Below, one piece after another: positions 10,042 through 21,358 of a stretch of 64,000 nt of DNA. Origin of the DNA: Candidatus Nomurabacteria bacterium RIFCSPLOWO2_01_FULL_41_18 (GTDB lineage Bacteria; Patescibacteriota; Minisyncoccia; Phycocordibacterales; UBA9973); the NCBI GenBank assembly GCA_001785865.1, contig MFUZ01000003.1:15048-79047 (forward strand), in the 5' to 3' direction. How positions within the stretch are numbered: the first letter of the stretch is position 1; each line of letters begins with the position of its first letter. Both the position numbers and the translations under genes were made by a program. The notes beneath the pieces were generated by a model that was not told the origin of the DNA, did no database searches, and saw nothing but the letters and a program-made list of their open reading frames with translations.

Positions 10042-11583
10042 ATGGAAACAATAAAATACAACAAAGAAAACACACCAAACGCTGCTAAATTAATGGAATC
10101 TCTTAGGTATAGTGGTTATGACAACAATATTGCAATAGCTGATCTTATAGATAACTCACTTGACGCTAATGCTACAAATATAAACATTGAAATAAATCTA
10201 GATTCAAAAAAAGAAGAGCATATCGTTATAATAGATGACGGTTCGGGTATGGACGAGGAAACACTAGGACAGGCTCTTCGTTTGGGCTCTATTACTCATC
10301 GAAATGTGGAATCAGATTTAGGTAGATTCGGTATGGGAATGGTAACCGCTTCTATTTCCATAGCAAAAAGAATTGAAGTATTTACCAAACAGAAAGACAA
10401 ACCAATGCTTACCAGCATTATGGATCTTGAAGAAATGGCAAAAAGTAACAACTTCAATGTTTATAGGGAAAAATCTACCTCAGAAGAAATTAAATTTGCT
10501 AAACATCGTGGACTTGAAGATTCCGGAACTATTTTGGTATTAAGAAAATGTGATAAATTAACGAAATCAGGTGTTGTAGAATTTACGGACTCTCTTAGAA
10601 AAGATGTTGGAGAGACTTATCGTTATTTCTTAAGATCTGGTAAAAAAATTACAATAAATAATAAGTTAGTGGAAATTGTCGATCCAATGTGGACGGACGG
10701 AGGACTCACAAAGGAATACAAACAAAAGTCGGAAATCTTCAGTGATGAAAGATATGAAATAAAAATCGATGGCGCAGACAGCAAAGAGTCTTTTGCAGTT
10801 AAAATTTATGTTCTTCCGCAATTTGACCAAAGTGTAATGCGAAAATTAAAAATCAATGTCAAGAATCAAGGGTTTTATATTTTAAGGAATTATAGACAAA
10901 TATCTAAAGCAGATCATTTGGGTGGATTATGGGAACAACACAATGATCTAAACCGAGTCAGGGTAGAGGTAATATTTTCTGGAACGTTAGATTCGGCTAT
11001 GGGAGTTAATTACACAAAGCATAATATAAAACCAATACAAGCTATAGTGGATAAGTTTCAAAGTGACATCATGCCTCAGATTGACACTCTTAGAAAGAGG
11101 TTCAAAAAGGATACAAAAAGAGAGTCAGCAAAAGACCTGAATTTTTCTGAAGCAGAAAGAATTATTTCACAGAAAAATAAATTACTAGATAAAGCTGAAC
11201 CAGATAAAAAGGGTAAACCTACTCCTATAAATCCAGTTGTAAAAAGACCGAAAACGAAAGTTGAGGAAGAAGTAATAAAAAGAGGAAGACCCAGTTTGGC
11301 ACACCTTGCGAGATTTGAATCACATAGTTTTGGTCTGACTGGCCCTATTTTTGAAGTTGAAAAACAGGGCAAAATTACTATTATTCAATGGAATATCGAT
11401 CATCCTTTTTACGAAAGATTTCTTATAGAATATAAAGATAATATAGATCTGGTAAATGCTGTATCATTTCTTGCTTACTCTCTTGGAGAATCAAAACTAA
11501 AATATAGTAGCGATGAAACCTACGAGATGTTGGAAAACATTATGAGTACCATCTCTACAAATTTAAGGGTATTATTAAGTTAA
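10042..11583 (+). CDS. GHKL-superfamily ATPase (HATPase_c_3 / MORC-like 'paraMORC' type), 513 aa
   Basis: Bergerat-fold motifs: N-box ADLIDNSLDA, G1 IIDDGSGMD, G2 GRFGMGM, G3 GTILVL, followed by YRYFL...ITIN..V...DPMW, typical of MORC/MutL-like ATPases. The track start at 10006 is a TTG; the ATG at 10042 has a GAGGT 13 nt upstream. Confidence 0.7.
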   Translation: METIKYNKENTPNAAKLMESLRYSGYDNNIAIADLIDNSLDANATNINIEINLDSKKEEHIVIIDDGSGMDEETLGQALRLGSITHRNVESDLGRFGMGMVTASISIAKRIEVFTKQKDKPMLTSIMDLEEMAKSNNFNVYREKSTSEEIKFAKHRGLEDSGTILVLRKCDKLTKSGVVEFTDSLRKDVGETYRYFLRSGKKITINNKLVEIVDPMWTDGGLTKEYKQKSEIFSDERYEIKIDGADSKESFAVKIYVLPQFDQSVMRKLKINVKNQGFYILRNYRQISKADHLGGLWEQHNDLNRVRVEVIFSGTLDSAMGVNYTKHNIKPIQAIVDKFQSDIMPQIDTLRKRFKKDTKRESAKDLNFSEAERIISQKNKLLDKAEPDKKGKPTPINPVVKRPKTKVEEEVIKRGRPSLAHLARFESHSFGLTGPIFEVEKQGKITIIQWNIDHPFYERFLIEYKDNIDLVNAVSFLAYSLGESKLKYSSDETYEMLENIMSTISTNLRVLLS

Positions 11584-11592
11584 AAAAAATAT

Positions 11593-11841
11593 ATGATGTC
11601 AAAATGTACATGTAATAGTTTCAGATTTGAGCTAAAAGAAGCCTCTCCTGAAAATTCTAGATATAAATTTTATTTCATTCAATGTGCATTATGTGGAAAT
11701 CCGATTGGAGTTACGGATTATTATCATACACATACAGCGATAGAAGCTATGAAAAAAGAAATTGAATCTAAGATAAGAAATATAGAGTCAAGTCTTGTAA
11801 ATATCGAACATTCATTAAGAGCAATTACTAATAAGCAATAA
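11593..11841 (+). CDS. small zinc-ribbon plus coiled-coil protein (82 aa), partner of the GHKL ATPase
   Basis: CTC...CALCG Cys pairs, then a heptad-like C-terminus (EIESKIRNIESSLVNIEHSLRAI). Starts 9 nt after the ATPase stop. Confidence 0.5.
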   Translation: MMSKCTCNSFRFELKEASPENSRYKFYFIQCALCGNPIGVTDYYHTHTAIEAMKKEIESKIRNIESSLVNIEHSLRAITNKQ

Positions 11842-11864
11842 AAGAATTAATAATTCTTTTCATT
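11841..11864 (+). terminator. hairpin plus T-tract after the Zn-ribbon gene
   Basis: AAAGAATTAATAATTCTTT, a near-perfect palindrome, followed by TTTC. Confidence 0.4.
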
Positions 11865-11870
11865 CCATGC

Positions 11871-11911
11871 TACAATAAGTACGTAATGTATTACGTAATA
11901 CATTACGTAAC
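11871..11911. repeat. Palindromic repeat copy C; contains a perfect 30-bp palindrome TACGTAATGTATTACGTAATACATTACGTA (11880-11909)
   Basis: Exact reverse-complement symmetry checked base by base. 5' flank ACAATAAGT and 3' flank ACGTAAC are shared with copies A and B. Confidence 0.75.
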
Positions 11912-11914
11912 TAA

Positions 11915-12091
11915 ATGCCTACACAAAAACTTATAAATCAAAATGTTCGGAAGATAACCAAACTTGGCGGGAAGTCTTTAGCTGTGACTTTGCCTAGAGA
12001 ATTGGTGACAAAGCTCGGATGGAAAGAAAAACAAAAAGTGACAGTCAAAAGAGTCCGAGGCGGGTTGCTGATTAAAGATTGGAAGAAATAG
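11915..12091 (+). CDS. AbrB/MazE/SpoVT-family swapped-hairpin DNA-binding protein (58 aa), antitoxin-like
   Basis: Not in the ORF track (<60 aa). MPTQKLINQNVRKITKLGGKSLAVTLPRELVTKLGWKEKQKVTVKRVRGGLLIKDWKK; G.S..VTLP.ELV..LG...GD.V is the AbrB-family core. The ATG is 5 nt after palindrome C. Confidence 0.55.
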   Translation: MPTQKLINQNVRKITKLGGKSLAVTLPRELVTKLGWKEKQKVTVKRVRGGLLIKDWKK

Positions 12092-12099
12092 ATAAAACT

Positions 12100-12690
12100 T
12101 GCATTTTTAACATAGCCGTGCTATGGTGTTGGCTGTTCGTTCTTAGTTTTTAGTGTTCTTAACCTCACAACCAACAACCAAACTGCAGTAGTTTTTGTTT
12201 CTTATGACCAAAATAGCAATATGGGAGTCACATCCCATCTTTTCGGAGGCAGTAGTCTCGTTAAAAACCGAACTTCCACTGTGTCACTTGTGGCACATGT
12301 ATGCCATAGCATGGAAGTGTGTCGTAAATGTTGCTGAGTACGGGCCGGCTTTAAGAAGCCTAAACCCGGACGAGCTCGATATGTACGATTTTCATGAGGT
12401 GGCACTTGGTCAGGTTGGAGTTCAACTTGATCAGGCTTCACAGAAAACACGGGATTACCGGTGTCTTCTCTTGATTTACAGCATCAATGTCGAGGTTTCA
12501 ACTTTGGTGACCCACTTCTTGGCGTCCATCGTCCGGCATCTGCAAGCAATCACACCCCAGCTTGCAACAAACAAATAAGGGGGATCAATTTCACGAAGCC
12601 GTGGCCAATAAAGGTCCACGGTCTTCTCTTTTTTAGGGCAAAAAAATAGAATAAAAAAGTGTAAAAACAGATATTTTGTGCTAAAATCAG
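12100..12690. ncRNA. GC-rich (~50% against an AT-rich surround) region with no credible ORF: candidate structured RNA of unassigned class, possibly an ileS leader or a standalone ncRNA
   Basis: The composition jump is sharp. ORFs overlap on both strands (12195-12578 plus; 12202-12450 and 12476-12742 minus) and none looks protein-like. Multiple local hairpins, for example CGTGGCCAATAAAGGTCCACG. I could not convincingly place RNase P, tmRNA, SRP or T-box signatures. Confidence 0.3.
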
Positions 12691-12696
12691 GCAATA

Positions 12697-15600
12697 ATGG
12701 CTGAAAACGAAGAAAACAATCCCGTGCGAAACAACGGTTCACAAAGTGAACCTGTTTCTAACGGGACAAGTAAAAAAAGTGAAGTAGCTTTAAGAGAAGA
12801 AAAAGTTCTTGAATTTTGGCATAAAAATAAAATTTTTGAAAGGTCTTTGGAGAAAAAATCCCCAAAGGGACGCTACGTTTTTTATGACGGCCCCCCCTTT
12901 GCCACGGGGCAGATTCATTATGGACATATTTTAGGCAGTACGGCGAAGGATGTCATCGGCAGATATCGGACTATGCAGGGATACTATGTGCCGAGGAAAT
13001 GGGGGTGGGATTGCCATGGTTTACCGATTGAAAATATAGTTGAAAAAGAATTAGGCATCGCCGGCCACGTCGAGATTGAAAAATACGGAATTGATAAATT
13101 TGTTGAATACGCGAGGAGTAAGGTTTTGCAGTACGACAAGGATTGGGAAAAGGGAATCGAGCGAATTGGACGCTGGGTGGATTTTCAAGGTGGGTATAAA
13201 ACCATGGATAATACCTTCATTGAATCCGTCTGGTGGGCATTGTCTGAACTTAATAAAAAAGATCTTATTTATGAAGGTGTGAGAGTGCTGGCCTATTGTC
13301 CGAGATGCGAGACGCCTATAGCCAACTCTGAAATCGCGATGGATAACAGTTATAAAGATATTTCCGATATTTCGGTGTACGTAAAATTTGAATTGGAAGA
13401 TGAACCGGGGACATATCTGCTCGCTTGGACGACGACCCCGTGGACTTTGCCAGGCAACACAGCTATCGCCATAAATAAAAATATTGTCTATGTGAAGGTG
13501 AAAGTCGAAAATGACGTGATTATCCTTGCCAAGGATACCCTATCAAATGCTCTTAAAAACAAAGAATATTACTTGCTCGGGGAAATCAAGGGGGAAGGAC
13601 TCATAGGCAAGAGATATATCCCGGTTTTTCCATATTATCGAACTTCAAATGAAGCTCAGAGTAAAAACATTTGGAAAGTGTGGCATGCGGATTTTGTGAC
13701 CGCGGATCAAGGTACAGGTCTGGCCCATGAAGCGCCGGCATTCGGTGAAGACGATATGAATCTCGCGAAGCAAAATAATATTCCTTGGATAATTCATGTT
13801 GATGAAACCGGAAAGTTCAAAAAAGAAGTTTCAGATTTCGCTGGGTTGCTAGTGAAACCAAAATCGTCCGAAAAAGACGGCCATCAAAAATCCGACATTG
13901 AGGTAATAAAATACTTGGCAAAAAATAATTTTCTCTTTGCTAAAGAGAAAATAATCCATCCCTATCCGCATTGTTATCGATGTGAAACGCCGATCATATA
14001 TTACGCGTTGCCTTCTTGGTTTATTAACATTCAAAAAGAAAAAGAAAATATTCTCACACAAGGGAGGAGTCTCAACTGGATTCCAGCTCATTTGAAAGAG
14101 GGAAGATTTAAAAATATCTCAGAGAATGCTCCAGACTGGAATATCTCAAGAAACCGCTACTGGGCGAGTCCGTTGCCTATTTGGAAGTGCGACAAATGCA
14201 AACAAAAAACCTTCGTCAGTTCTCTCAAAGATTTAAAAGAAAAAACAAAAAAATCCGGCAATAAATATTTTGTGATGCGACATGGGGAGGCAATGTACAA
14301 TGCCAAACACCTTGATGATCCAAAAGGAGATCCCGACAATCATTTGACAAAGCAGGGCGAGGGTGAGACGGTTGCGGCCGCGAAAAAATTAAAAAGCGAA
14401 AAAATCGACATTATATTTTCTTCTCCATTTTTGCGCACCAGGGAAACGGCGGAAATTTTAAGGCGTGAACTTGGCTTCGGAGAAGAGCAATTGATTATAG
14501 ATGAAAGATTGCACGAGATAAACGAAGAGGACCAAAATTTGGTGGCTAAAAGAATGGGTGATTTCATTTATAGTACAGAAAAAAAATTTCAAGGGAAAAA
14601 TATTATTGTGATTTCACATGGCAATCCCATTTGGACCTTGCAAAGGATTGTGGCCGGCGTACCGCATGCCGATTTTTCAGAAAAACAAATGTTGAATACG
14701 GGGGAGGCCGAAGAATTGAATTTCATTCCATTTCCCCACAACGCAAATTATGAGCTAGACTTGCACCGGCCGTACATTGATCAAGTTCCTCTCGTGTGTA
14801 GTTGTGCTGGCAGTCTAACGCGTATACCAGAAGTGTTGGATTGTTGGTTTGAATCTGGTTCGATGCCTTTCGCGCAAGATCATTATCCGTTTAAAAATCT
14901 AGAATGGAAAAAAAATAATTTTCCGGCAGCTTTTGTCGCTGAATACATAGCTCAGACAAGAACTTGGTTTTATTATACCCACGTAGTATCTGCAATACTT
15001 TTCAAACAGGCACCTTTTAAAAATATTGTGACGACCGGGACTTTGCGCGCAGAAGACGGAGAAAAAATGTCCAAATCCAAAAATAATTATCCAGATCCTT
15101 GGATTTTTATAAATAAATACGGCGTCGATGCGCTGCGTCTTTACCTGATGTCTTCAACTCTGATGAAAGGCGAGGATGCTAATTTCTCGGAAAAAGCAGT
15201 GCAAGACATTGCCACTAAAATAATCGGGCGACTTTTTAATGTTTTTGCCTTTTATGAAATATATCGAAATAAAACACTGGAAAAAAATGACAAACCTAGG
15301 TCAAAAAATGTTCTAGATATTTGGATCTTGTCTAGATTTGAGCAAATTTTAAATGAAATTACCAAAGGGATGGAAAATTATGATTTGGCCGAAGCGACCA
15401 GGCCAATAGATTTATTTGTGGATGATCTTTCTACTTGGTATTTGCGTCGTTCACGAGAGAGGATAAAAGAAGAGGCCGCAAACCCCGCCAGGGAGGACGG
15501 GGCAAGGCAAACTTTATATTTTGTTCTAAAAACGCTTTCAAAACTTATGGCCCCTTTTGCGCCTTTTACTGCAGAGGATATTTGGCTTAAATTGAGGACT

Positions 15601-16227
15601 GGCTACGTTCCAGTGGACGGTACGCGGCATGATTTCGCTAAATCAGATGCAGAAAGTGTGCATCTAGAAAATTGGCCCAGTGTGTCAAGGGGCATCTTTG
15701 ACATTTTTGGAAATGGAAAGAGTAAAGTTCTGGAAGAGATGTTAATAGCTAGAGAAATTTGTACAATTGGAAATGCTGAAAGACAGAAAATTAATATTCC
15801 TGTGCGTCAGCCATTACAAACACTCTTAATTAAAGATGCAGCATTTAATCTAATATCAAAAAATAATCAAATATTAAATTTGATTAAAGAAGAGTTAAAT
15901 ATAAAAAATATAGTTTTCGATAATTCAGTAAAAAAGGGGAATAAGAGCATAACTTTGGATACGAATATCACTCCAGAATTAAAACAAGAAGGGGATTATA
16001 GGGAGCTGGTACGAGCACTACAAGATATGCGTAAAAAGATGGGGTTGACGCCTAGCGATGTAGTAAAAATTGTACTTGACACTAATGAGACAGGACAAAA
16101 ATTAATAGAAAAATTTGCGTCAGATTTAAAAAAGACTGTTCTTGTGTCTCAAATTAAATTTGAAAATAACGATGGGCAAGAAGTGAAAATAGATGATTTA
16201 AATTTCAAAGTTAAGATAGAAAGATAG
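12697..16227 (+). CDS. ileS: isoleucine--tRNA ligase with a histidine-phosphatase (PGAM-like) domain inserted between its zinc-knuckle Cys pairs
   Basis: HIGH (PFATGQIHYGHIL), WNISRNRYWASPLP, EVLDCWFESGS and KMSKSKNNYP. 1176 aa against a typical ~920-1050. The insert (residues ~520-700) carries the RHGE catalytic motif, SSPFLRTRETAEI and VISHG, and is bounded by CDKC ... CSCAG. Confidence 0.85.
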   Translation: MAENEENNPVRNNGSQSEPVSNGTSKKSEVALREEKVLEFWHKNKIFERSLEKKSPKGRYVFYDGPPFATGQIHYGHILGSTAKDVIGRYRTMQGYYVPRKWGWDCHGLPIENIVEKELGIAGHVEIEKYGIDKFVEYARSKVLQYDKDWEKGIERIGRWVDFQGGYKTMDNTFIESVWWALSELNKKDLIYEGVRVLAYCPRCETPIANSEIAMDNSYKDISDISVYVKFELEDEPGTYLLAWTTTPWTLPGNTAIAINKNIVYVKVKVENDVIILAKDTLSNALKNKEYYLLGEIKGEGLIGKRYIPVFPYYRTSNEAQSKNIWKVWHADFVTADQGTGLAHEAPAFGEDDMNLAKQNNIPWIIHVDETGKFKKEVSDFAGLLVKPKSSEKDGHQKSDIEVIKYLAKNNFLFAKEKIIHPYPHCYRCETPIIYYALPSWFINIQKEKENILTQGRSLNWIPAHLKEGRFKNISENAPDWNISRNRYWASPLPIWKCDKCKQKTFVSSLKDLKEKTKKSGNKYFVMRHGEAMYNAKHLDDPKGDPDNHLTKQGEGETVAAAKKLKSEKIDIIFSSPFLRTRETAEILRRELGFGEEQLIIDERLHEINEEDQNLVAKRMGDFIYSTEKKFQGKNIIVISHGNPIWTLQRIVAGVPHADFSEKQMLNTGEAEELNFIPFPHNANYELDLHRPYIDQVPLVCSCAGSLTRIPEVLDCWFESGSMPFAQDHYPFKNLEWKKNNFPAAFVAEYIAQTRTWFYYTHVVSAILFKQAPFKNIVTTGTLRAEDGEKMSKSKNNYPDPWIFINKYGVDALRLYLMSSTLMKGEDANFSEKAVQDIATKIIGRLFNVFAFYEIYRNKTLEKNDKPRSKNVLDIWILSRFEQILNEITKGMENYDLAEATRPIDLFVDDLSTWYLRRSRERIKEEAANPAREDGARQTLYFVLKTLSKLMAPFAPFTAEDIWLKLRTGYVPVDGTRHDFAKSDAESVHLENWPSVSRGIFDIFGNGKSKVLEEMLIAREICTIGNAERQKINIPVRQPLQTLLIKDAAFNLISKNNQILNLIKEELNIKNIVFDNSVKKGNKSITLDTNITPELKQEGDYRELVRALQDMRKKMGLTPSDVVKIVLDTNETGQKLIEKFASDLKKTVLVSQIKFENNDGQEVKIDDLNFKVKIER

Positions 16228-16228
16228 T

Positions 16229-16879
16229 ATGTCAAAAACAATTTCTGAAATTTATACGGAATATAAAATAATGCCGAACTTGCAGGAGCACATGCTTCGT
16301 GTGGCAGGAGTTGCGTCTTTGATATGTGACAATTTTGATGAGCCACTAAATAAAGAAGAGATAATAACTGCATGTTTACTTCACGATATGGGAAATATTA
16401 TTAAATTTAAATTAGAAATCTGGCCACAATTTTTAGAACCGGAAGGACTGAAATACTGGCAAAATGTACAAAGCGAATTTAAAAATAAATATGGAAATAA
16501 TGAGTATTTAGCCCACGGAAAAATAGCGAATGAAATCGGCATAAATAATAGAGTTTTAGAAATAATTAATGCTATTAGTTTTTTGGGTGGGACTGGAAAT
16601 GCTTCAAGTGAAGATTTTGGCAAAAAAATTGCCCATTATTGTGATGACAGAGTAAGTCCTTTTAGTGTAGTAAGTTTAAAACAGCGTTTTACGGATTTAA
16701 GAAAACGTTATGCTCACCATGGCAACGATACACCGGAACGTGATGCATATGAAGTAGCATTAAGGCAAATCGAAGAGCAAATTTTCTCAAAATGCAAAAT
16801 AAAACCAGAAGATATAAATAATGACACAGTTGCGCCCATAATTTCAGAACTAAGAAATTTTGTGATCCGTTCGAACTAA
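16229..16879 (+). CDS. HD-domain phosphohydrolase
   Basis: H...HD motif pair (EHMLRVAGVA ... LLHDMGNI). Start overlaps the ileS stop. Confidence 0.55.
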   Translation: MSKTISEIYTEYKIMPNLQEHMLRVAGVASLICDNFDEPLNKEEIITACLLHDMGNIIKFKLEIWPQFLEPEGLKYWQNVQSEFKNKYGNNEYLAHGKIANEIGINNRVLEIINAISFLGGTGNASSEDFGKKIAHYCDDRVSPFSVVSLKQRFTDLRKRYAHHGNDTPERDAYEVALRQIEEQIFSKCKIKPEDINNDTVAPIISELRNFVIRSN

Positions 16880-16924
16880 CTCAGGATCATGGTGATAGAA
16901 ATAGAACCATGATAAAATAGGATT

Positions 16925-17446
16925 GTGGACAACAAATTTATCTACGTAAATGATAAATATCAGATCGATGCTCTAAATAAAGATTGGATTGGTTTACCAG
17001 TTTTTTTTGAAAATTTACCTGAAGAAATAAAAATAAAAGGAGATACTTTCTATTTTCCAACTCCATTTCATATTAGTCTTGTATATATCGGGAAAATAAT
17101 TGAAAAATACAATATTTCAATCCCAGATTTCAGAGACAAAATCATAGATGATTTTTCTAATTTTACGAAAACTGATAATATTGAAGTTATTAAATATAAT
17201 AATAAATATAAACTTGTTTCTAGAGATGGCATAAATAAAACTATTGTAGTAATGTGTGAAGTTTCAAACTTGAACAATTTTTTTGATTTTATAAATAAAA
17301 AATATGAGCTAAATATAAAATACCCAGCTACTCATGTTACTCTCTATAACACATCAAAGGGTAAATCTGGTATTTGGCTAATGGACGAAGATGATATTAA
17401 AAACATTACTGTAACTATACCAAATCCGATAGGTCGCCCTCTGTAA
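16925..17446 (+). CDS. 2H phosphoesterase superfamily protein (LigT/ThpR-like 2',3'-cyclic or 2'-5' phosphodiesterase)
   Basis: Two H-x-[ST]-x motifs (FHISLVY, THVTLYN) about 89 residues apart in a 173-aa protein — the defining 2H architecture. Confidence 0.55.
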   Translation: MDNKFIYVNDKYQIDALNKDWIGLPVFFENLPEEIKIKGDTFYFPTPFHISLVYIGKIIEKYNISIPDFRDKIIDDFSNFTKTDNIEVIKYNNKYKLVSRDGINKTIVVMCEVSNLNNFFDFINKKYELNIKYPATHVTLYNTSKGKSGIWLMDEDDIKNITVTIPNPIGRPL

Positions 17447-17480
17447 TTTTAATATGCTAAATACTTAGTAACATAATAGA

Positions 17481-17491
17481 TACGGCCGTTG
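17481..17491. repeat. ACGGCCGT-core palindrome upstream of the PaaX-like gene
   Basis: TACGGCCGTTG. Related to the perfect 18-bp palindrome TAGCAACGGCCGTTGCTA at 18095-18112, just downstream of the same gene. Confidence 0.5.
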
Positions 17492-17512
17492 TCAATATGC
17501 TATCATATCTTT

Positions 17513-18073
17513 ATGAAAATAATTGATAAAGAATCTAATTCGGGAAAGATAATCCGTGCCTTGGGTATGGGAATAGGAGTGACAGTAGCTTTATCAAATA
17601 AAAGAACAAGTTATAAAGTCACTAAATTATTGATTAAAGAAATTTTTGGCTTAAACAGAAAACCTGCAAATATGGCTGGTTATTTTTCAAAACTTAGGAG
17701 ACAAAAATTGATAGAGATTAAAAAATCTGGTAAATATCATAAAATTTTTCTTACAGAAAATGGTAGGGAAATATTTTTACGATTTAACTATGACGAATTA
17801 AAAATAAAAAATCCCAAAATTTGGGATAGAAATTTTAGAGTGATTGTTTTTGATATTCCAGAAACTAAGAGGGTAGCCAGAGATTCCTTAAGAGAAAAGA
17901 TGAAGGAACTAGGGTTTGTTAAATTTAACGACAGTGTATGGGTTTATCCGTATCCGTGCCAGAAAGAGATTGATTTTATTGCTAATTATTGGGAAATAGG
18001 TAGGTATGTCCATTTTATTTTGGCTCGGGATATCACCAATCGAGATTTATTAGAAAAAGCCTTTAGTTTGTAA
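17513..18073 (+). CDS. PaaX-like regulator domain protein (Cas2-like ferredoxin fold segment)
   Basis: WDRNFRVIVFDIPETKRVARDSLREKMKELGFVKFNDSVWVYP matches the PaaX middle domain (WDGKWLLLL...LIWQGFG...). The track start at 17489 is a TTG inside the palindrome; the ATG at 17513 is used. No CRISPR array nearby. Confidence 0.45.
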   Translation: MKIIDKESNSGKIIRALGMGIGVTVALSNKRTSYKVTKLLIKEIFGLNRKPANMAGYFSKLRRQKLIEIKKSGKYHKIFLTENGREIFLRFNYDELKIKNPKIWDRNFRVIVFDIPETKRVARDSLREKMKELGFVKFNDSVWVYPYPCQKEIDFIANYWEIGRYVHFILARDITNRDLLEKAFSL

Positions 18074-18094
18074 GTTACTTCAAACATAGCGTAA

Positions 18095-18112
18095 TAGCAA
18101 CGGCCGTTGCTA
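18095..18112. repeat. Perfect 18-bp palindrome TAGCAACGGCCGTTGCTA
   Basis: Exact reverse-complement symmetry. The partner site at 17481-17491 flanks the other side of the PaaX-like gene. Confidence 0.6.
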
Positions 18113-18168
18113 TAGTGTTATTATATATTTATTCTTTTTACTTATTTTGTCTGTGATATAATTAAAAT

Positions 18169-18807
18169 ATGAAGATAAAAAAGCTTGGACATTGTTGCTT
18201 TGTTGCCGAACCAAAAGAGGGAATTAGGGTAATGACAGATCCTGGCGCTTTTTCAACAATGCAAAGCGAAGAAAAAAATATTTCTGCTGTACTCATTACT
18301 CATGAACATCAAGATCACCTACATATTGATTCACTAAAAAAAGTCTTAGTAAATAATCCCACTGCAATTGTTATTACAAATACTGCTGTCGGTAAATTGC
18401 TCGACGAAGCTGGAATTAAATATATAAAAATAGAAGAAGGGCAGGAATACGATTTAAGTGGGGTAAGCATAAATGGTTTTGGAAATTTGCATGCGGAAAT
18501 TTATGAGACATATGGCAGAGTGCAGAATACAGGTTATATGGTTGATAAACTTTGTTATCCTGGAGACGCGTTTGCTAATCCAAATACTGAGGTAGATATT
18601 GTGGCGCTTCCCGTTACTGGTCCATGGATGAGAATAAAAGATGCTATCGATTATGCAAAAATGCTTAAGCCAAGAGTTGCCTTTCCGGTTCACGATGCTC
18701 ACATACACGAATGGGCTGGTTTTATTTTAAAAGTTCCCAATTTATTGCTTGGAGAAGTTGGAATAGATTTTAAGAAGATGGATCTAGGTAAAGAAGAAAA
18801 TTTATAA
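18169..18807 (+). CDS. MBL-fold metallo-hydrolase
   Basis: HxHxDH motif (ITHEHQDHL) and downstream His/Asp ligands (PVHDAHIHEW). Confidence 0.75.
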   Translation: MKIKKLGHCCFVAEPKEGIRVMTDPGAFSTMQSEEKNISAVLITHEHQDHLHIDSLKKVLVNNPTAIVITNTAVGKLLDEAGIKYIKIEEGQEYDLSGVSINGFGNLHAEIYETYGRVQNTGYMVDKLCYPGDAFANPNTEVDIVALPVTGPWMRIKDAIDYAKMLKPRVAFPVHDAHIHEWAGFILKVPNLLLGEVGIDFKKMDLGKEENL

Positions 18808-19389
18808 ATGCATCACATTTATCATACAGAGGGGATAATATTGAGCAGTAAGAATTTTGGAGAAGCGGGGAAACACTTTTCTATTTTCACTCGTGATTTG
18901 GGGATGATAACAGCGACGGCGCAAGGAGTTCGAAAGATTTCTTCAAAACTTCGCTTTGTGTTGCAGGATTTTGCATATATAAAAATTGATTTGGTGCAAG
19001 GTAAAAATATTTTTAGAGTAACGACCGCATCGAAAACGAACCAGCTGGAGCAGTTGATTAAAAATAGAGAGACTTTTGCGGTTTTTGCCAATATTTCTCG
19101 CTTATTAAAGCGGTTACTTGCTGGCGTTGAACCCAACGAAGCATTATTTTCGGATTTGATTGGTGGTTTGTTTATTTTAGAAAAAACAGAAAAAAGGGAA
19201 GATTTAAGAAATATAGAAATAGTTATTGTTTTAAGGATTCTGAATAATCTGGGGTATATAGGTGAAAATGAAATATTAGAAAATCTCACCAAATCTCCAT
19301 TTGAAGAAGATTTAATATTCAAAGTTTCAGAATCAAGAATCCACGTATTAAATCAAATAAATAAAGCTCTTAAAGAGACACATCTATAG
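18808..19389 (+). CDS. recO: DNA repair protein RecO
   Basis: N-terminal OB-fold signature (TEGIILSSKNFGEAGKHFSIFTRDLGMITATAQGVRKISSKLR) matches RecO. Start is immediately after the MBL gene stop. Confidence 0.6.
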   Translation: MHHIYHTEGIILSSKNFGEAGKHFSIFTRDLGMITATAQGVRKISSKLRFVLQDFAYIKIDLVQGKNIFRVTTASKTNQLEQLIKNRETFAVFANISRLLKRLLAGVEPNEALFSDLIGGLFILEKTEKREDLRNIEIVIVLRILNNLGYIGENEILENLTKSPFEEDLIFKVSESRIHVLNQINKALKETHL

Positions 19390-19408
19390 ACTATGGTATA
19401 ATCTTAGA

Positions 19409-21358
19409 ATGCCTCAAAATGATAGGGATAAGTTAAATAGAATAGAAGAGTTAAAAAGCAAGCTTTTCAGCAAAAGCTATCAGACAAAAATAGAACACAA
19501 GGATCGTTTTACTCATTTCGAGAAAAAAGACGTGCCAGATGCCTGGGGGAAAAGCCCAAAATTCGACCTTGCGCCATCATATTCAAGCGAAAAATTTTTT
19601 ATGAAAACCTCGGTTTTCAAAAATTTCTTCATATTTTCTTTAGTTTTTTTTGCTTTGACCCTTCTATACGCTTCTTATGTCTTTTTCGGTGGTAGCAATA
19701 CTGTTTCCAATGACAATATCGATATTTCCATAGTCGGCAACAATTTCACGGCCGGAGGAGAAGAATTGTCACTGGTCGTCGGAATCACGAACAAAAACAG
19801 TTCTGCACTCGACTTGGTGGACCTGGTCGTAGAGTATCCGAAGAGCTCTCGTCTAGGTAGTACTGCGCCGCCCTCTGGGACAGAGAGATTTCGAGAATCC
19901 CTGGGCACAATTCCCGCCGGAGTGGTGCGCAATGAAAATATAAAACTTATTCTTTTTGGAGAACAGGGCACAGAGCGGCAGATAAAAATTTCCTTGGAAT
20001 ATCGGGTAGAAGGATCAAACGCCATTTTCGTAAAAGAGAAATTCTACGAGGTGACCATTAGCTCTACACCGCTCAATATCTTAGTCGATGCGCCTAAAGT
20101 GATAAGTCCGAACCAGGATATTACTCTCAATATAAAAACAACACTGAACGCTACCAACCCAGCATCCAAAATACTTCTGAAGATCGATTATCCTCTCGGA
20201 TTCCAATTTAAGTCATCCGTTCCGGTTCCGTCCCTTGGAAACAATATCTGGAATTTGGGGGACCTAGCTCCTGGCGCTGAGCGCAATGTCGTGGTCACTG
20301 GTCAGATGATTGATGTGTTTGATGGAGAAGAGAAAATATTTCATATCTCAAGCGGATCCCAGTCGGGAGGAGACAAGTCTCTTATCGATGTCGTCTTCAA
20401 TTCTCTAGCTTACTCGGTCGGTATCCAAAAGCCTTTCATCGAAGCGAAGCTGTATGTAAATGGCGTATATCAGAGGGAGTACGCTACTACTGCAAAGAAT
20501 CCGGTCCGAGGCGAAATAAAATGGACCAACAATTTAGATACGAAAGTAAATGACCTAGAGATTCGAGCTAAGATTTCCGGGAATTCATTCGATCGGGAGA
20601 CCATAGATAGCGACCAAGGGTTTTATGATTCGGCGATCGATACCATAATCTGGGACAAGAATTCTGAAAGTGAACTTTCCGAAGTGAATCCTGGAGATTC
20701 GGGTTCAGTGAACTTTTCCGTCTCTCCGCGTTTGCTGTTTTCAGCTACTGGCGGGATAATTTCCGATCCGTCGATTAATATCAATATTTCTATTTCTGGA
20801 AAGCAGATGACTACCGGCTATACCACTGTCGATCTAAACAATTCCGATTCCTCGGTCATTAGGATCATTTCGGACGTGGGATTCGCGACCAAAGCGCTCT
20901 ACTATTCGGGTATTTTTACAAATACCGGTCCGGTGCCTCCCCAAGTCGGAAAAGAAACCACTTATACTGTAGTGTGGTCCTTATCCAATACTTCAAACAG
21001 TATTTCGAAAGGCATTGTCCGTTCATCGTTGCCATCCTGGATGAAGTTTACCAACAAGATCTCGCCGGAAAGTGAAGATGTGACTTACAATCCTTCAACT
21101 CGGGAAATCGTCTGGAATATCGGCAGGATTCCGCGAGGCACAGGTATCGCCACCGTCGACAAAAGCGTTTCTTTTCAGGTAGCATTTACCCCATCCCTGT
21201 CTCAGGTTCGCACAACGCCGGTTATCGTCAACGAAGCTGTTTTGACGGGTCATGATGATTTTGCTAATGTGGATGTGCGGGTAAGTAAGTCGTCAATCCG
21301 AACACAGCTCGAGAATGACCCTTCTTTCCCTCCGGGTGGGGGCACAGTAGTGGAATAA
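19409..21358 (+). CDS. hypothetical membrane-anchored extracellular protein (649 aa)
   Basis: Short cytoplasmic N-terminus, one TM helix (FFIFSLVFFALTLLYASYVFF), then a large Ser/Thr/Asn-rich beta-type ectodomain. No family recognised. Confidence 0.5.
   Translation: MPQNDRDKLNRIEELKSKLFSKSYQTKIEHKDRFTHFEKKDVPDAWGKSPKFDLAPSYSSEKFFMKTSVFKNFFIFSLVFFALTLLYASYVFFGGSNTVSNDNIDISIVGNNFTAGGEELSLVVGITNKNSSALDLVDLVVEYPKSSRLGSTAPPSGTERFRESLGTIPAGVVRNENIKLILFGEQGTERQIKISLEYRVEGSNAIFVKEKFYEVTISSTPLNILVDAPKVISPNQDITLNIKTTLNATNPASKILLKIDYPLGFQFKSSVPVPSLGNNIWNLGDLAPGAERNVVVTGQMIDVFDGEEKIFHISSGSQSGGDKSLIDVVFNSLAYSVGIQKPFIEAKLYVNGVYQREYATTAKNPVRGEIKWTNNLDTKVNDLEIRAKISGNSFDRETIDSDQGFYDSAIDTIIWDKNSESELSEVNPGDSGSVNFSVSPRLLFSATGGIISDPSININISISGKQMTTGYTTVDLNNSDSSVIRIISDVGFATKALYYSGIFTNTGPVPPQVGKETTYTVVWSLSNTSNSISKGIVRSSLPSWMKFTNKISPESEDVTYNPSTREIVWNIGRIPRGTGIATVDKSVSFQVAFTPSLSQVRTTPVIVNEAVLTGHDDFANVDVRVSKSSIRTQLENDPSFPPGGGTVVE

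Follow-up and report, generated by a model that had tools for sequence, protein, structure and literature searches.

The locus considered here lies downstream of ileS in a 64-kb stretch of DNA (64,000 nucleotides in all, hereafter the window) from a low-GC Candidate Phyla Radiation (CPR)/Patescibacteria genome, that of a Candidatus Nomurabacteria bacterium, and it raises the question of what unites the genes for an HD-domain protein, a 2H-like protein and a PaaX-like protein that follow one another there, the last of them between two palindromes. An earlier note on this DNA had taken these genes for a run of phosphoesterases, with a regulator, that might share a theme of nucleotide or RNA-end metabolism. 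Checks of the open reading frames (ORFs) and of their domains found all three genes where the note had placed them, and its domain calls (HD, 2H-like fold, PaaX-like regulator domain) were broadly right (Table 1). The present analysis leads to a different view of the locus, in which the palindrome bracketing, and not the hydrolase run, is the real feature. We propose, with a probability of about 0.6, that the PaaX-like gene encodes a dimeric DNA-binding protein of the PaaX/Cas2 fold, which represses its own leaderless promoter via a palindrome built into that promoter. CPR bacteria account for a large part of bacterial diversity and, to our knowledge, almost nothing is known of how their transcription is regulated; the PaaX-like protein and its palindrome form a concrete, directly testable candidate protein-DNA pair in this group.

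In the window, ACGGCCGT occurs exactly twice (17482-17489 and 18100-18107), with an expectation of 0.34 and only 2 of 100 shuffled sequences reaching two occurrences, and both sites fall within a direct repeat of 46 nt whose copies show 74% identity (17469-17514 and 18087-18132). The two palindromes thus bracket the PaaX-like gene, as had been said of them, and the 18-mer described at 18095-18112 is perfect and even extends to a 20-mer; of the upstream element at 17481-17491, also presented as a palindrome, only an 8-mer is perfect. The start of the gene has to be moved: the previously implied start at TTG 17489 is wrong and the real one is ATG 17513, because every homologue opens with M[KR]xID[KQ]ESN.

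The bracketing is conserved well beyond the window. With the PaaX-like protein as anchor, 34 loci were collected from GTDB species representatives for comparison, and homologues of all neighbouring genes were mapped in them (related loci are designated below by L numbers). All 33 genome loci that bear a homologue have a related palindrome upstream of the gene, essentially all have one downstream, and metagenome loci are alike; in about 40 related loci a palindrome of 32-36 bp is present on both sides. The flanking palindromes follow the consensus (T)ACCATAATAGACACGG-CCGTGTCTATTATGGT(A), where the hyphen marks the centre, and are often perfect over 32-36 bp, some upstream sites being perfect palindromes of up to 36 bp. 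The conserved blocks are ATAAT(A/G), then 3 variable bp, then ACGG-CCGT.

The upstream copy is built into a promoter at an exact register. Its centre lies exactly 27 nt ahead of the ATG at 21 of the 33 genome loci and at 8 of 9 metagenome loci; the motif TG+TAnnnT, whose TG comes from the end of the upstream right arm, is present at 24/29 upstream sites compared with 4/28 downstream ones, and TAGACA is found in the left arm of 16/29 upstream sites compared with 1/28 downstream, with a spacer of 18 nt. As the ATG comes 6 nt past the -10 hexamer, transcription should start at the A of the start codon, so that the messenger would be leaderless. Leaderless transcripts are apparently a common design in this genome, since 12 of the 55 window genes carry a TGnTAnnnT box 6-7 nt ahead of their start, for a background of 0.56% per position (examples of this layout are at 16910-16927, 17498-17515, 18154-18171 and 19394-19411). 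The downstream copy is placed more loosely, 20 nt past the stop codon in the window and 23-62 nt past it in related loci, and the promoter of the next gene is found about 50 nt beyond it. The possibility that this copy is the promoter of the next gene was rejected, on the grounds that it is devoid of the -10 T6 and of a -35 element, that its distance to the gene varies, and that the next gene has its own box; boxes of the TGTGATAAAAT type, analogous to the one ahead of the metallo-beta-lactamase (MBL)-fold gene in the window, precede the downstream gene in L012, L014, L015 and L019.

The two copies of a locus resemble each other more than they resemble the copies of other loci: core identity between upstream and downstream copies is 11.1/14 within the same locus and 8.9/14 between loci (permutation p < 1e-4). 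Altered cores are shared by both copies, GCCTAGGC being found twice in L038 and ACACGTGT twice in L037, and these two loci encode the same two proteins that depart from Y57-F58, a pair of residues of the predicted recognition helix that is conserved in all other cases. In the same helix K60R tracks GC-type cores imperfectly, and on the whole the link between recognition-helix residues and palindrome core is only suggestive. Genomes with two PaaX-like copies are common, and distant PaaX_M paralogues, at 27-33% identity, lie between palindromes of their own, which are of a different type. This is the case for the second copies in L031, L035 and L008 and for L101, L111, L120 and L047, the palindromes being ACGCTA-TAGCGT in L031 and L008, CTCGCGA-CCGTGAG in L035, and perfect 36-mers in L111 and L120. 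The second PaaX_M paralogues map at 13070-13669 in L008, 13257-13859 in L031, 3-548 in L022 and 51-650 in L035, either just past glyRS or upstream of ileS, and their comparison with the window protein gives E values between about 1e-20 and 1e-32.

The PaaX-like protein matches Pfam PaaX_M (4e-20) and is 65-90% identical across species, far above its neighbours. It belongs to a family of proteins of about 185 amino acids that comprises 4,029 clusters at 50% identity (E <= 1e-3). A phage origin of the gene was considered and rejected, as viral contigs contained no relatives. Its structural neighbours are PaaX and Cas2, while a search of PDB sequences with its profile gave no match. At the N-terminus there is a sub-threshold match to a winged-helix model, DUF6293_C (23.7 bits for a cut-off of 27), and the AlphaFold2 (AF2) model has a helix-helix-strand-strand succession at residues 34-82, with a predicted local distance difference test (pLDDT) score of 56-73. 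The protein ends at residue 186, directly after PaaX_M, and has no PaaX_C domain. It scores 27.3 bits against the PaaX equivalog TIGR02277, which has a cut-off of 264.55, and 16.5 against the Cas2 model TIGR01573, which has a cut-off of 24.5. The product is best described as resembling a PaaX protein minus the ligand-associated C-terminal domain, with a putative winged-helix region followed by a Cas2-like dimerisation domain. Compared with PaaX itself, the phenylacetyl-CoA-responsive repressor of the paa operon in Escherichia coli (PDB 8a39; about 305 amino acids), it is shorter; no paa genes are found among its neighbours, which are ileS, recO, glyRS or rpoD/dnaG, rpmB and a DEAD-box helicase gene; and its presumed site, one palindrome of 32-36 bp, occurs on both sides of a gene whose messenger is probably leaderless. 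In contrast with Cas2 and VapD-type ferredoxin-fold nucleases, the domain is fused to a presumed DNA-binding region and encoded at housekeeping loci, and the genes called up to 10 kb to each side of the window locus include no cas1.

The palindromes are most likely the putative binding sites of this protein. The PaaX-like gene would form a self-contained unit, in the order palindrome, promoter, gene and palindrome, and its product would bind the approximately 32-bp palindrome as a dimer. The upstream site would span positions of about -44 to -12 of its own extended -10 promoter, and because the site spans the promoter, the bound protein would shut off its own leaderless transcript; we thus infer negative autoregulation, rather than activation of the MerR type. 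The downstream copy, which has lost the promoter elements but is still palindromic and appears to co-evolve with the first, would be a second binding site, which might cooperate with the first through a loop across the 618-bp unit, or might act as a roadblock or insulator and keep neighbouring transcription out of the small gene. For downstream sites and for the solo copies described below, the candidate roles are insulator or roadblock, a partnership similar to that of REP (repetitive extragenic palindromic) sequences with RAYTs (REP-associated tyrosine transposases), or recombination. A palindrome lying over the -35 to -10 region of its own promoter is what is found with autoregulated palindrome-binding repressors such as type II antitoxins and C-proteins. 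Unlike these, the PaaX-like unit always has a second, promoter-less copy past the stop codon, has solo copies at the ends of other genes, and has an unusually long site. The architecture is unusually clean, with a leaderless extended -10 promoter inside a palindrome, a fixed register, a second copy, paralogue-specific sites and solo copies. In the open-access full-text literature we found no description of such a palindrome-bracketed arrangement and no paper that connects either Patescibacteria or palindromes of this kind with PaaX-like or Cas2-like proteins, which is weak evidence that it is new.

Copies of the palindrome also exist away from the PaaX-like gene. A pattern scan of metagenomes for ATAGNNACGGCCGTNNCTAT gave at least 118 loci, from which chance matches in unrelated GC-rich contigs (64 sites of poor extended palindromy) were excluded by requiring at least 13 of 16 pairs. 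Among the matches listed, at least 58 sites have at least 13/16 extended pairs, at least 19 of these abut PaaX_M genes, and at least 22 are solo copies in CPR-like contigs, away from PaaX-like genes; examples of solo sites are those between the convergent genes pyrB and tig and between a 142-amino-acid ORF and a convergent HATPase gene, and another one in L036. Extra cognate copies appear to be few, with 0 in the 64-kb window and about 1 in about 460 kb of related loci. In L041 (1489-2264) two identical 34-bp palindromes (TACCACAATAGCAACGGCCGTTGCTATTGTGGTA), together with a direct repeat of about 45 nt, flank a MazEF cassette of a ribbon-helix-helix (RHH) antitoxin and PemK(MazF), which is inserted between rplL and the gene for a peptidoglycan-binding protein, and a canonical terminator follows the palindrome. 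This suggests that the L041 palindromes mark the boundaries of the cassette, or hot spots of insertion or duplication.

Several of these observations weigh against autorepression as the full account. Among the matches listed the solo copies are in convergent (at least 14), tandem (at least 7) or divergent (at least 1) contexts, and those located between convergent genes hug the stop codons, at 1-30 nt, often within a few nucleotides of both, a territory of terminators and REP sequences rather than of promoters or typical operators. The L041 pair hints at recombination or duplication at the palindromes. For one dimer of a winged helix-turn-helix (wHTH) protein, an often perfectly symmetric palindrome of 32-36 bp is a long site. 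On the protein side, there is no match to Pfam PaaX_N, and the model is poor over the first 100 residues (pLDDT 23-73). Lastly, a nuclease role of the PaaX-like protein is conceivable from its sequence, because the Asp of FDIPE and the NDSVW motif, both invariant among its homologues, are Cas2-like.

One alternative is that the palindromes act independently of any protein, as RNA or DNA hairpins (bidirectional terminators or mRNA-stabilising stems), the similarity between copies resulting from local duplication. The position of the solo copies next to convergent stop codons would fit this explanation, as would the many perfect palindromes whose copies differ symmetrically and in a compensatory manner (L120 is an example) and the properties of the downstream window copy, which folds as RNA at -12.9 kcal/mol (z -2.3) and is also picked up by a terminator scan. 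The upstream window copy, however, does not fold (-2 kcal/mol, z +1.5) though its sequence blocks are kept, and across genomes it is the arm sequence itself that is conserved, beyond pairing. Mismatches between the arms are concentrated in the middle of the stem, at positions 5-7 from the centre, with positions 2-4 and 8-10 nearly invariant, and their types show no strand bias (G.T versus A.C, 39:34 upstream and 32:20 downstream); two blocks in contact with protein would account for this pattern better than a stem of RNA. No T-run follows the stem, L041 has its separate terminator after the palindrome, and hairpins would leave unexplained both the pairing of protein clades with palindrome types and the 27-nt promoter register. 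Wobble bias, mismatch positions and folding thus lend no support to an RNA hairpin at the upstream site, although the downstream site could be one, and as a general explanation we regard hairpins as decidedly unlikely. Taken together, the mismatch pattern, the RNA folding, the promoter register and the paralogue-specific pairing favour recognition of duplex DNA by the encoded protein.

Recognition of DNA need not mean repression, and a protein with a presumed wHTH and a Cas2-like domain could instead maintain, copy or recombine the palindromes as its substrates, in a REP/RAYT-like or recombination-cassette system that would have produced the solo copies as well as the MazEF cassette between its two palindromes. 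RAYT genes are flanked by cognate repeats, single-copy, vertically inherited and specific for a repeat type (PMC3337134). The PaaX-like unit is similar to REPIN-RAYT systems in being a short (about 500-560 bp), single-copy gene, vertically inherited at conserved loci, always flanked on both sides by cognate palindromes of a type that is specific for each paralogue, and in having extra copies in extragenic 3' regions. By inspection, the palindrome has a 13-8-13 geometry, which we take to resemble that of lox/dif core sites, and the identical copies with their direct repeat in L041, the invariant Cas2-like motifs and the exchange of 2H-like and MBL genes between the two sides of the cassette from one genome to another would also be in line with such an activity. 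Yet the PaaX-like protein is not an HUH-Y1 (IS200-like) transposase and has no HUH/Tyr transposase or recombinase fold (no Y1_Tnp match), its repeats are apparently few per genome where RAYT repeats number tens to hundreds, and its upstream repeat is built into the promoter of the gene at an exact register that regulation explains and mobility does not. The absence of relatives in viral contigs also argues against this alternative, as does the lack of any integrase or recombinase among genes called in the 10 kb to the left and right of the window locus, no search having been aimed at a trans-acting Xer-type enzyme; the alternative appears unlikely to us. A broader formulation, in which wHTH and Cas2-like proteins and their cognate 32-36 bp palindromes constitute an undescribed, CPR-wide protein-repeat partnership, is tentative and rather doubtful, a little less so than the previous ones. 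In that case other genes may have acquired further palindrome copies at their 3' ends, as may the surroundings of accessory cassettes; the partnership could serve as a sequence-specific roadblock or insulator replacing conventional terminators in compact genomes, or could involve a nuclease of Cas2 descent by which the repeats are copied or recombined, by analogy a functional counterpart of RAYT-REPIN derived from a different fold. If the downstream and solo sites are truly functional as binding sites, they would represent a new mode of transcription-unit insulation or termination, or a new repeat-maintenance system, in minimal genomes. We favour autorepression at the upstream site, which accounts for the promoter register.

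The remaining alternative is the one with which the locus was first described, namely that the HD gene, the 2H-like gene and the PaaX-like regulator form a module of nucleotide or RNA-end metabolism in which the regulator controls the phosphoesterases, perhaps for the turnover of cyclic nucleotides or immune messengers. The earlier note held that its proposal would fail if the genes were independently scattered in related genomes, and they were found to be largely scattered. The backbone conserved across related loci is ileS ... recO-P649-glyRS, where P649 is the 649-amino-acid protein encoded after recO and before glyRS, and ileS, kept upstream of the cassette in 19 related loci, serves as the synteny anchor. 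Of about 19 syntenic loci, only 4 have the 2H-like gene; it precedes the PaaX-like gene only in the window and follows it in L010, L012 and L014, where it occupies the MBL position and is the first gene past the downstream palindrome, a placement that a module could accommodate. The MBL gene is itself ahead of the PaaX-like gene in L016 and L019, so that both genes occur on either side of the cassette, and a Ser_hydrolase gene occupies the slot in L017, L032 and L160. This repeated occupancy by small hydrolases (HD, 2H, MBL and Ser_hydrolase), the genes of nucleotide metabolism next to distant members of the 2H family, and the presence of Acb1 and viral 2',5'-phosphodiesterases among the structural neighbours of the 2H-like protein are what could be said for a module. 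Conversely, most syntenic loci have no 2H gene and the 2H family is found without the regulator, its more distant members lying in gene surroundings unrelated to these, while the PaaX-like unit with its two palindromes is present in at least three other genomic contexts without a phosphoesterase, such as between a dsbA-like gene and convergent rpoD-dnaG-rpoC, or between a DEAD-box helicase gene and convergent rpmB. Four window genes (2H-like, PaaX-like, MBL and P649) are each preceded, at 6 nt from the start, by a separate TGnTAnnnT box, which makes them separate, probably leaderless, transcription units, and the gene that follows the downstream palindrome lies at a varying distance from it (41 to 82 nt) and has its own promoter. 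The HD gene, finally, is an IleS domain in relatives (see below). We therefore rejected an operon or module of HD, 2H and PaaX-like genes on synteny and per-gene promoters; the phosphoesterase run was not borne out as a functional unit, its reading as a module is already largely refuted by synteny, and we hold it to be very improbable. The ileS-recO region is a variable slot with several independently transcribed leaderless genes, not one module. As a side observation, this slot (L007-L019, L022, L031 and L160) is a hot spot for differing small hydrolases.

The HD gene belongs with IleS, because the two are fused in relatives and the HD gene otherwise follows ileS immediately. HD lies within a single IleS ORF in eight related loci (L010, L011, L012, L014, L015, L016, L019 and L031), and Pfam confirms tRNA-synt_1, His_Phos_1, Anticodon_1, DUF5915 and HD in one protein in L010 and L014; in the remaining HD-bearing loci HD is directly 3' of ileS, and the window HD gene begins 2 nt past the ileS stop codon. 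A database search with the HD protein returned stand-alone forms of about 215 amino acids as well as fragments of C-terminal IleS fusions (Anticodon_1, DUF5915 and HD). Judging from sequence, the window HD gene corresponds to a C-terminal IleS domain that has split off as a gene of its own, and its product would be functionally part of IleS. The 216-amino-acid HD protein scores 33.2 bits against PF01966 (cut-off 22) and has H21 and the L-L-H-D-M-G motif; its best PDB match, HDDC2, is a weak one (E 0.7). In addition, a His_Phos_1 domain is inserted in the catalytic core of IleS, and IleS, His_Phos_1 and HD form a three-way association of an aminoacyl-tRNA synthetase, a phosphatase and a phosphohydrolase (window, 12697-16879; L010, 4021-7941; L014, 3859-7938), which we presume might clear Ap4A or other side products.

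The 2H-like protein had been called a textbook 2H phosphoesterase. A remote 2H relationship is supported by the fold, as the protein has the 2H alpha+beta fold and its top structural matches are all 2H enzymes; the textbook status was not sustained, as no curated family matches. The protein has the motifs FHISL (residues 48-52) and THVTL (residues 136-140), and in 42 homologues H49 and H137 are invariant (FHVSLV and THVTLY) and S51 and T139 are at least 90% conserved, the two Hx[ST] motifs of the family being about 88 residues apart. About 100 homologues were found, all of them from Paceibacteria/Nomurabacteria, all unnamed and none with a Pfam domain, and identity between species is 40-75%. 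The 42 family members had no match at E <= 1 to any Pfam model, the window protein had none in NCBIfam, which includes a ThpR model, and no 2H protein came up when PDB sequences were searched with a profile. Identity with canonical LigT/ThpR was accordingly rejected, since the curated models (LigT_PEase, 2_5_RNA_ligase2 and NCBIfam ThpR) do not match. Because motifs and fold are present and yet no family model matches, we regard the 173-amino-acid protein as a member of a remote, unannotated 2H-fold family, a putative phosphoesterase whose 2H assignment follows from the fold. Its likeness to the 2H superfamily (LigT/ThpR, Usb1, CPDase, the viral ns2/VP3 phosphodiesterases and Acb1) consists of the two invariant Hx[ST] motifs and the top structural matches, and the suggested link to viral enzymes that degrade immune messengers amounted to nothing beyond this fold-level resemblance. 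Taken by itself, the protein has a plausible role in nucleotide house-cleaning or salvage, because distant members of its family neighbour NUDIX, ITPase-like, dUTPase and thymidylate kinase (Tmk) genes; others lie in a variable region near a resolvase gene. Its gene has a GTG start, which is unusual for a leaderless mRNA, and the inverted repeat ahead of it (16886-16913), which reaches with its right arm into the TGATAAAAT box, could serve as a terminator or regulatory hairpin. Two smaller leads stand apart from the palindromes, namely the fusion of IleS, His-phosphatase and HD and the unannotated 2H-like family; both concern the housekeeping of nucleotides and of aminoacyl-tRNA synthetase side reactions in CPR bacteria.

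Table 1. Features of the ileS-recO region, with positions in the window.
Feature	Position	Strand	Basis or remark
ileS with inserted histidine-phosphatase domain	12697..16227	+	Pfam tRNA-synt_1 9e-121, His_Phos_1 3.5e-22, Anticodon_1, DUF5915
HD-domain phosphohydrolase	16229..16879	+	Pfam HD 7e-08
Inverted repeat ATCATGGT / ACCATGAT, 8-bp arms, 12-nt loop	16886..16913	+	Direct sequence reading; intergenic between HD and 2H-like genes
Extended -10-like box TGATAAAAT	16910..16918	+	6 nt ahead of 2H-like GTG start
Divergent 2H-fold protein, 173 aa, GTG start	16925..17446	+	HxS at H49, HxT at H137
Upstream 32-bp imperfect palindrome, 10/16 pairs, core ACGGCCGT 17482-17489	17470..17501	.	Proposed operator overlapping PaaX-like promoter
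PaaX-like gene promoter	17477..17506	+	TAGATA (-35-like), 18-nt spacer, TG-c-TATCAT (extended -10, 17498-17506); promoter scan
PaaX-like protein, 186 aa	17513..18073	+	Putative N-terminal winged-helix region, then Cas2-like PaaX_M; without PaaX C-terminal domain
Downstream 32-bp palindrome, 12/16 pairs, perfect 20-mer 18094-18113	18088..18119	.	20 nt past PaaX-like stop; promoter-less
Extended -10 box TGATATAAT	18154..18162	+	6 nt ahead of MBL start codon
MBL-fold hydrolase	18169..18807	+	Lactamase_B_3 1.9e-25
recO	18808..19389	+	RecO_N 5.3e-14, TIGR00613 1.3e-16

Upstream of ileS, the interval of about 600 nt between a MazE-like gene and ileS (12092-12696) has a GC content above that of its surroundings and is without a convincing ORF; it gave no Rfam match even at E <= 1, and no T-box or other known leader was detected in it. 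The whole region 11500-19500 contained no known RNA families in Rfam and no tRNAs. The MazE/AbrB-type gene, of 58 amino acids (11915-12091), has no obvious toxin gene adjoining it. A 32-bp near-perfect palindrome, GTACGTAATGTATTAC-GTAATACATTACGTAA (11879-11910, centre 11894, 15/16 pairs), sits 20 nt ahead of this gene and is probably an autoregulatory operator of the antitoxin type, which would make the gene at 11915 a further case, within the window, of an operator placed over a promoter.

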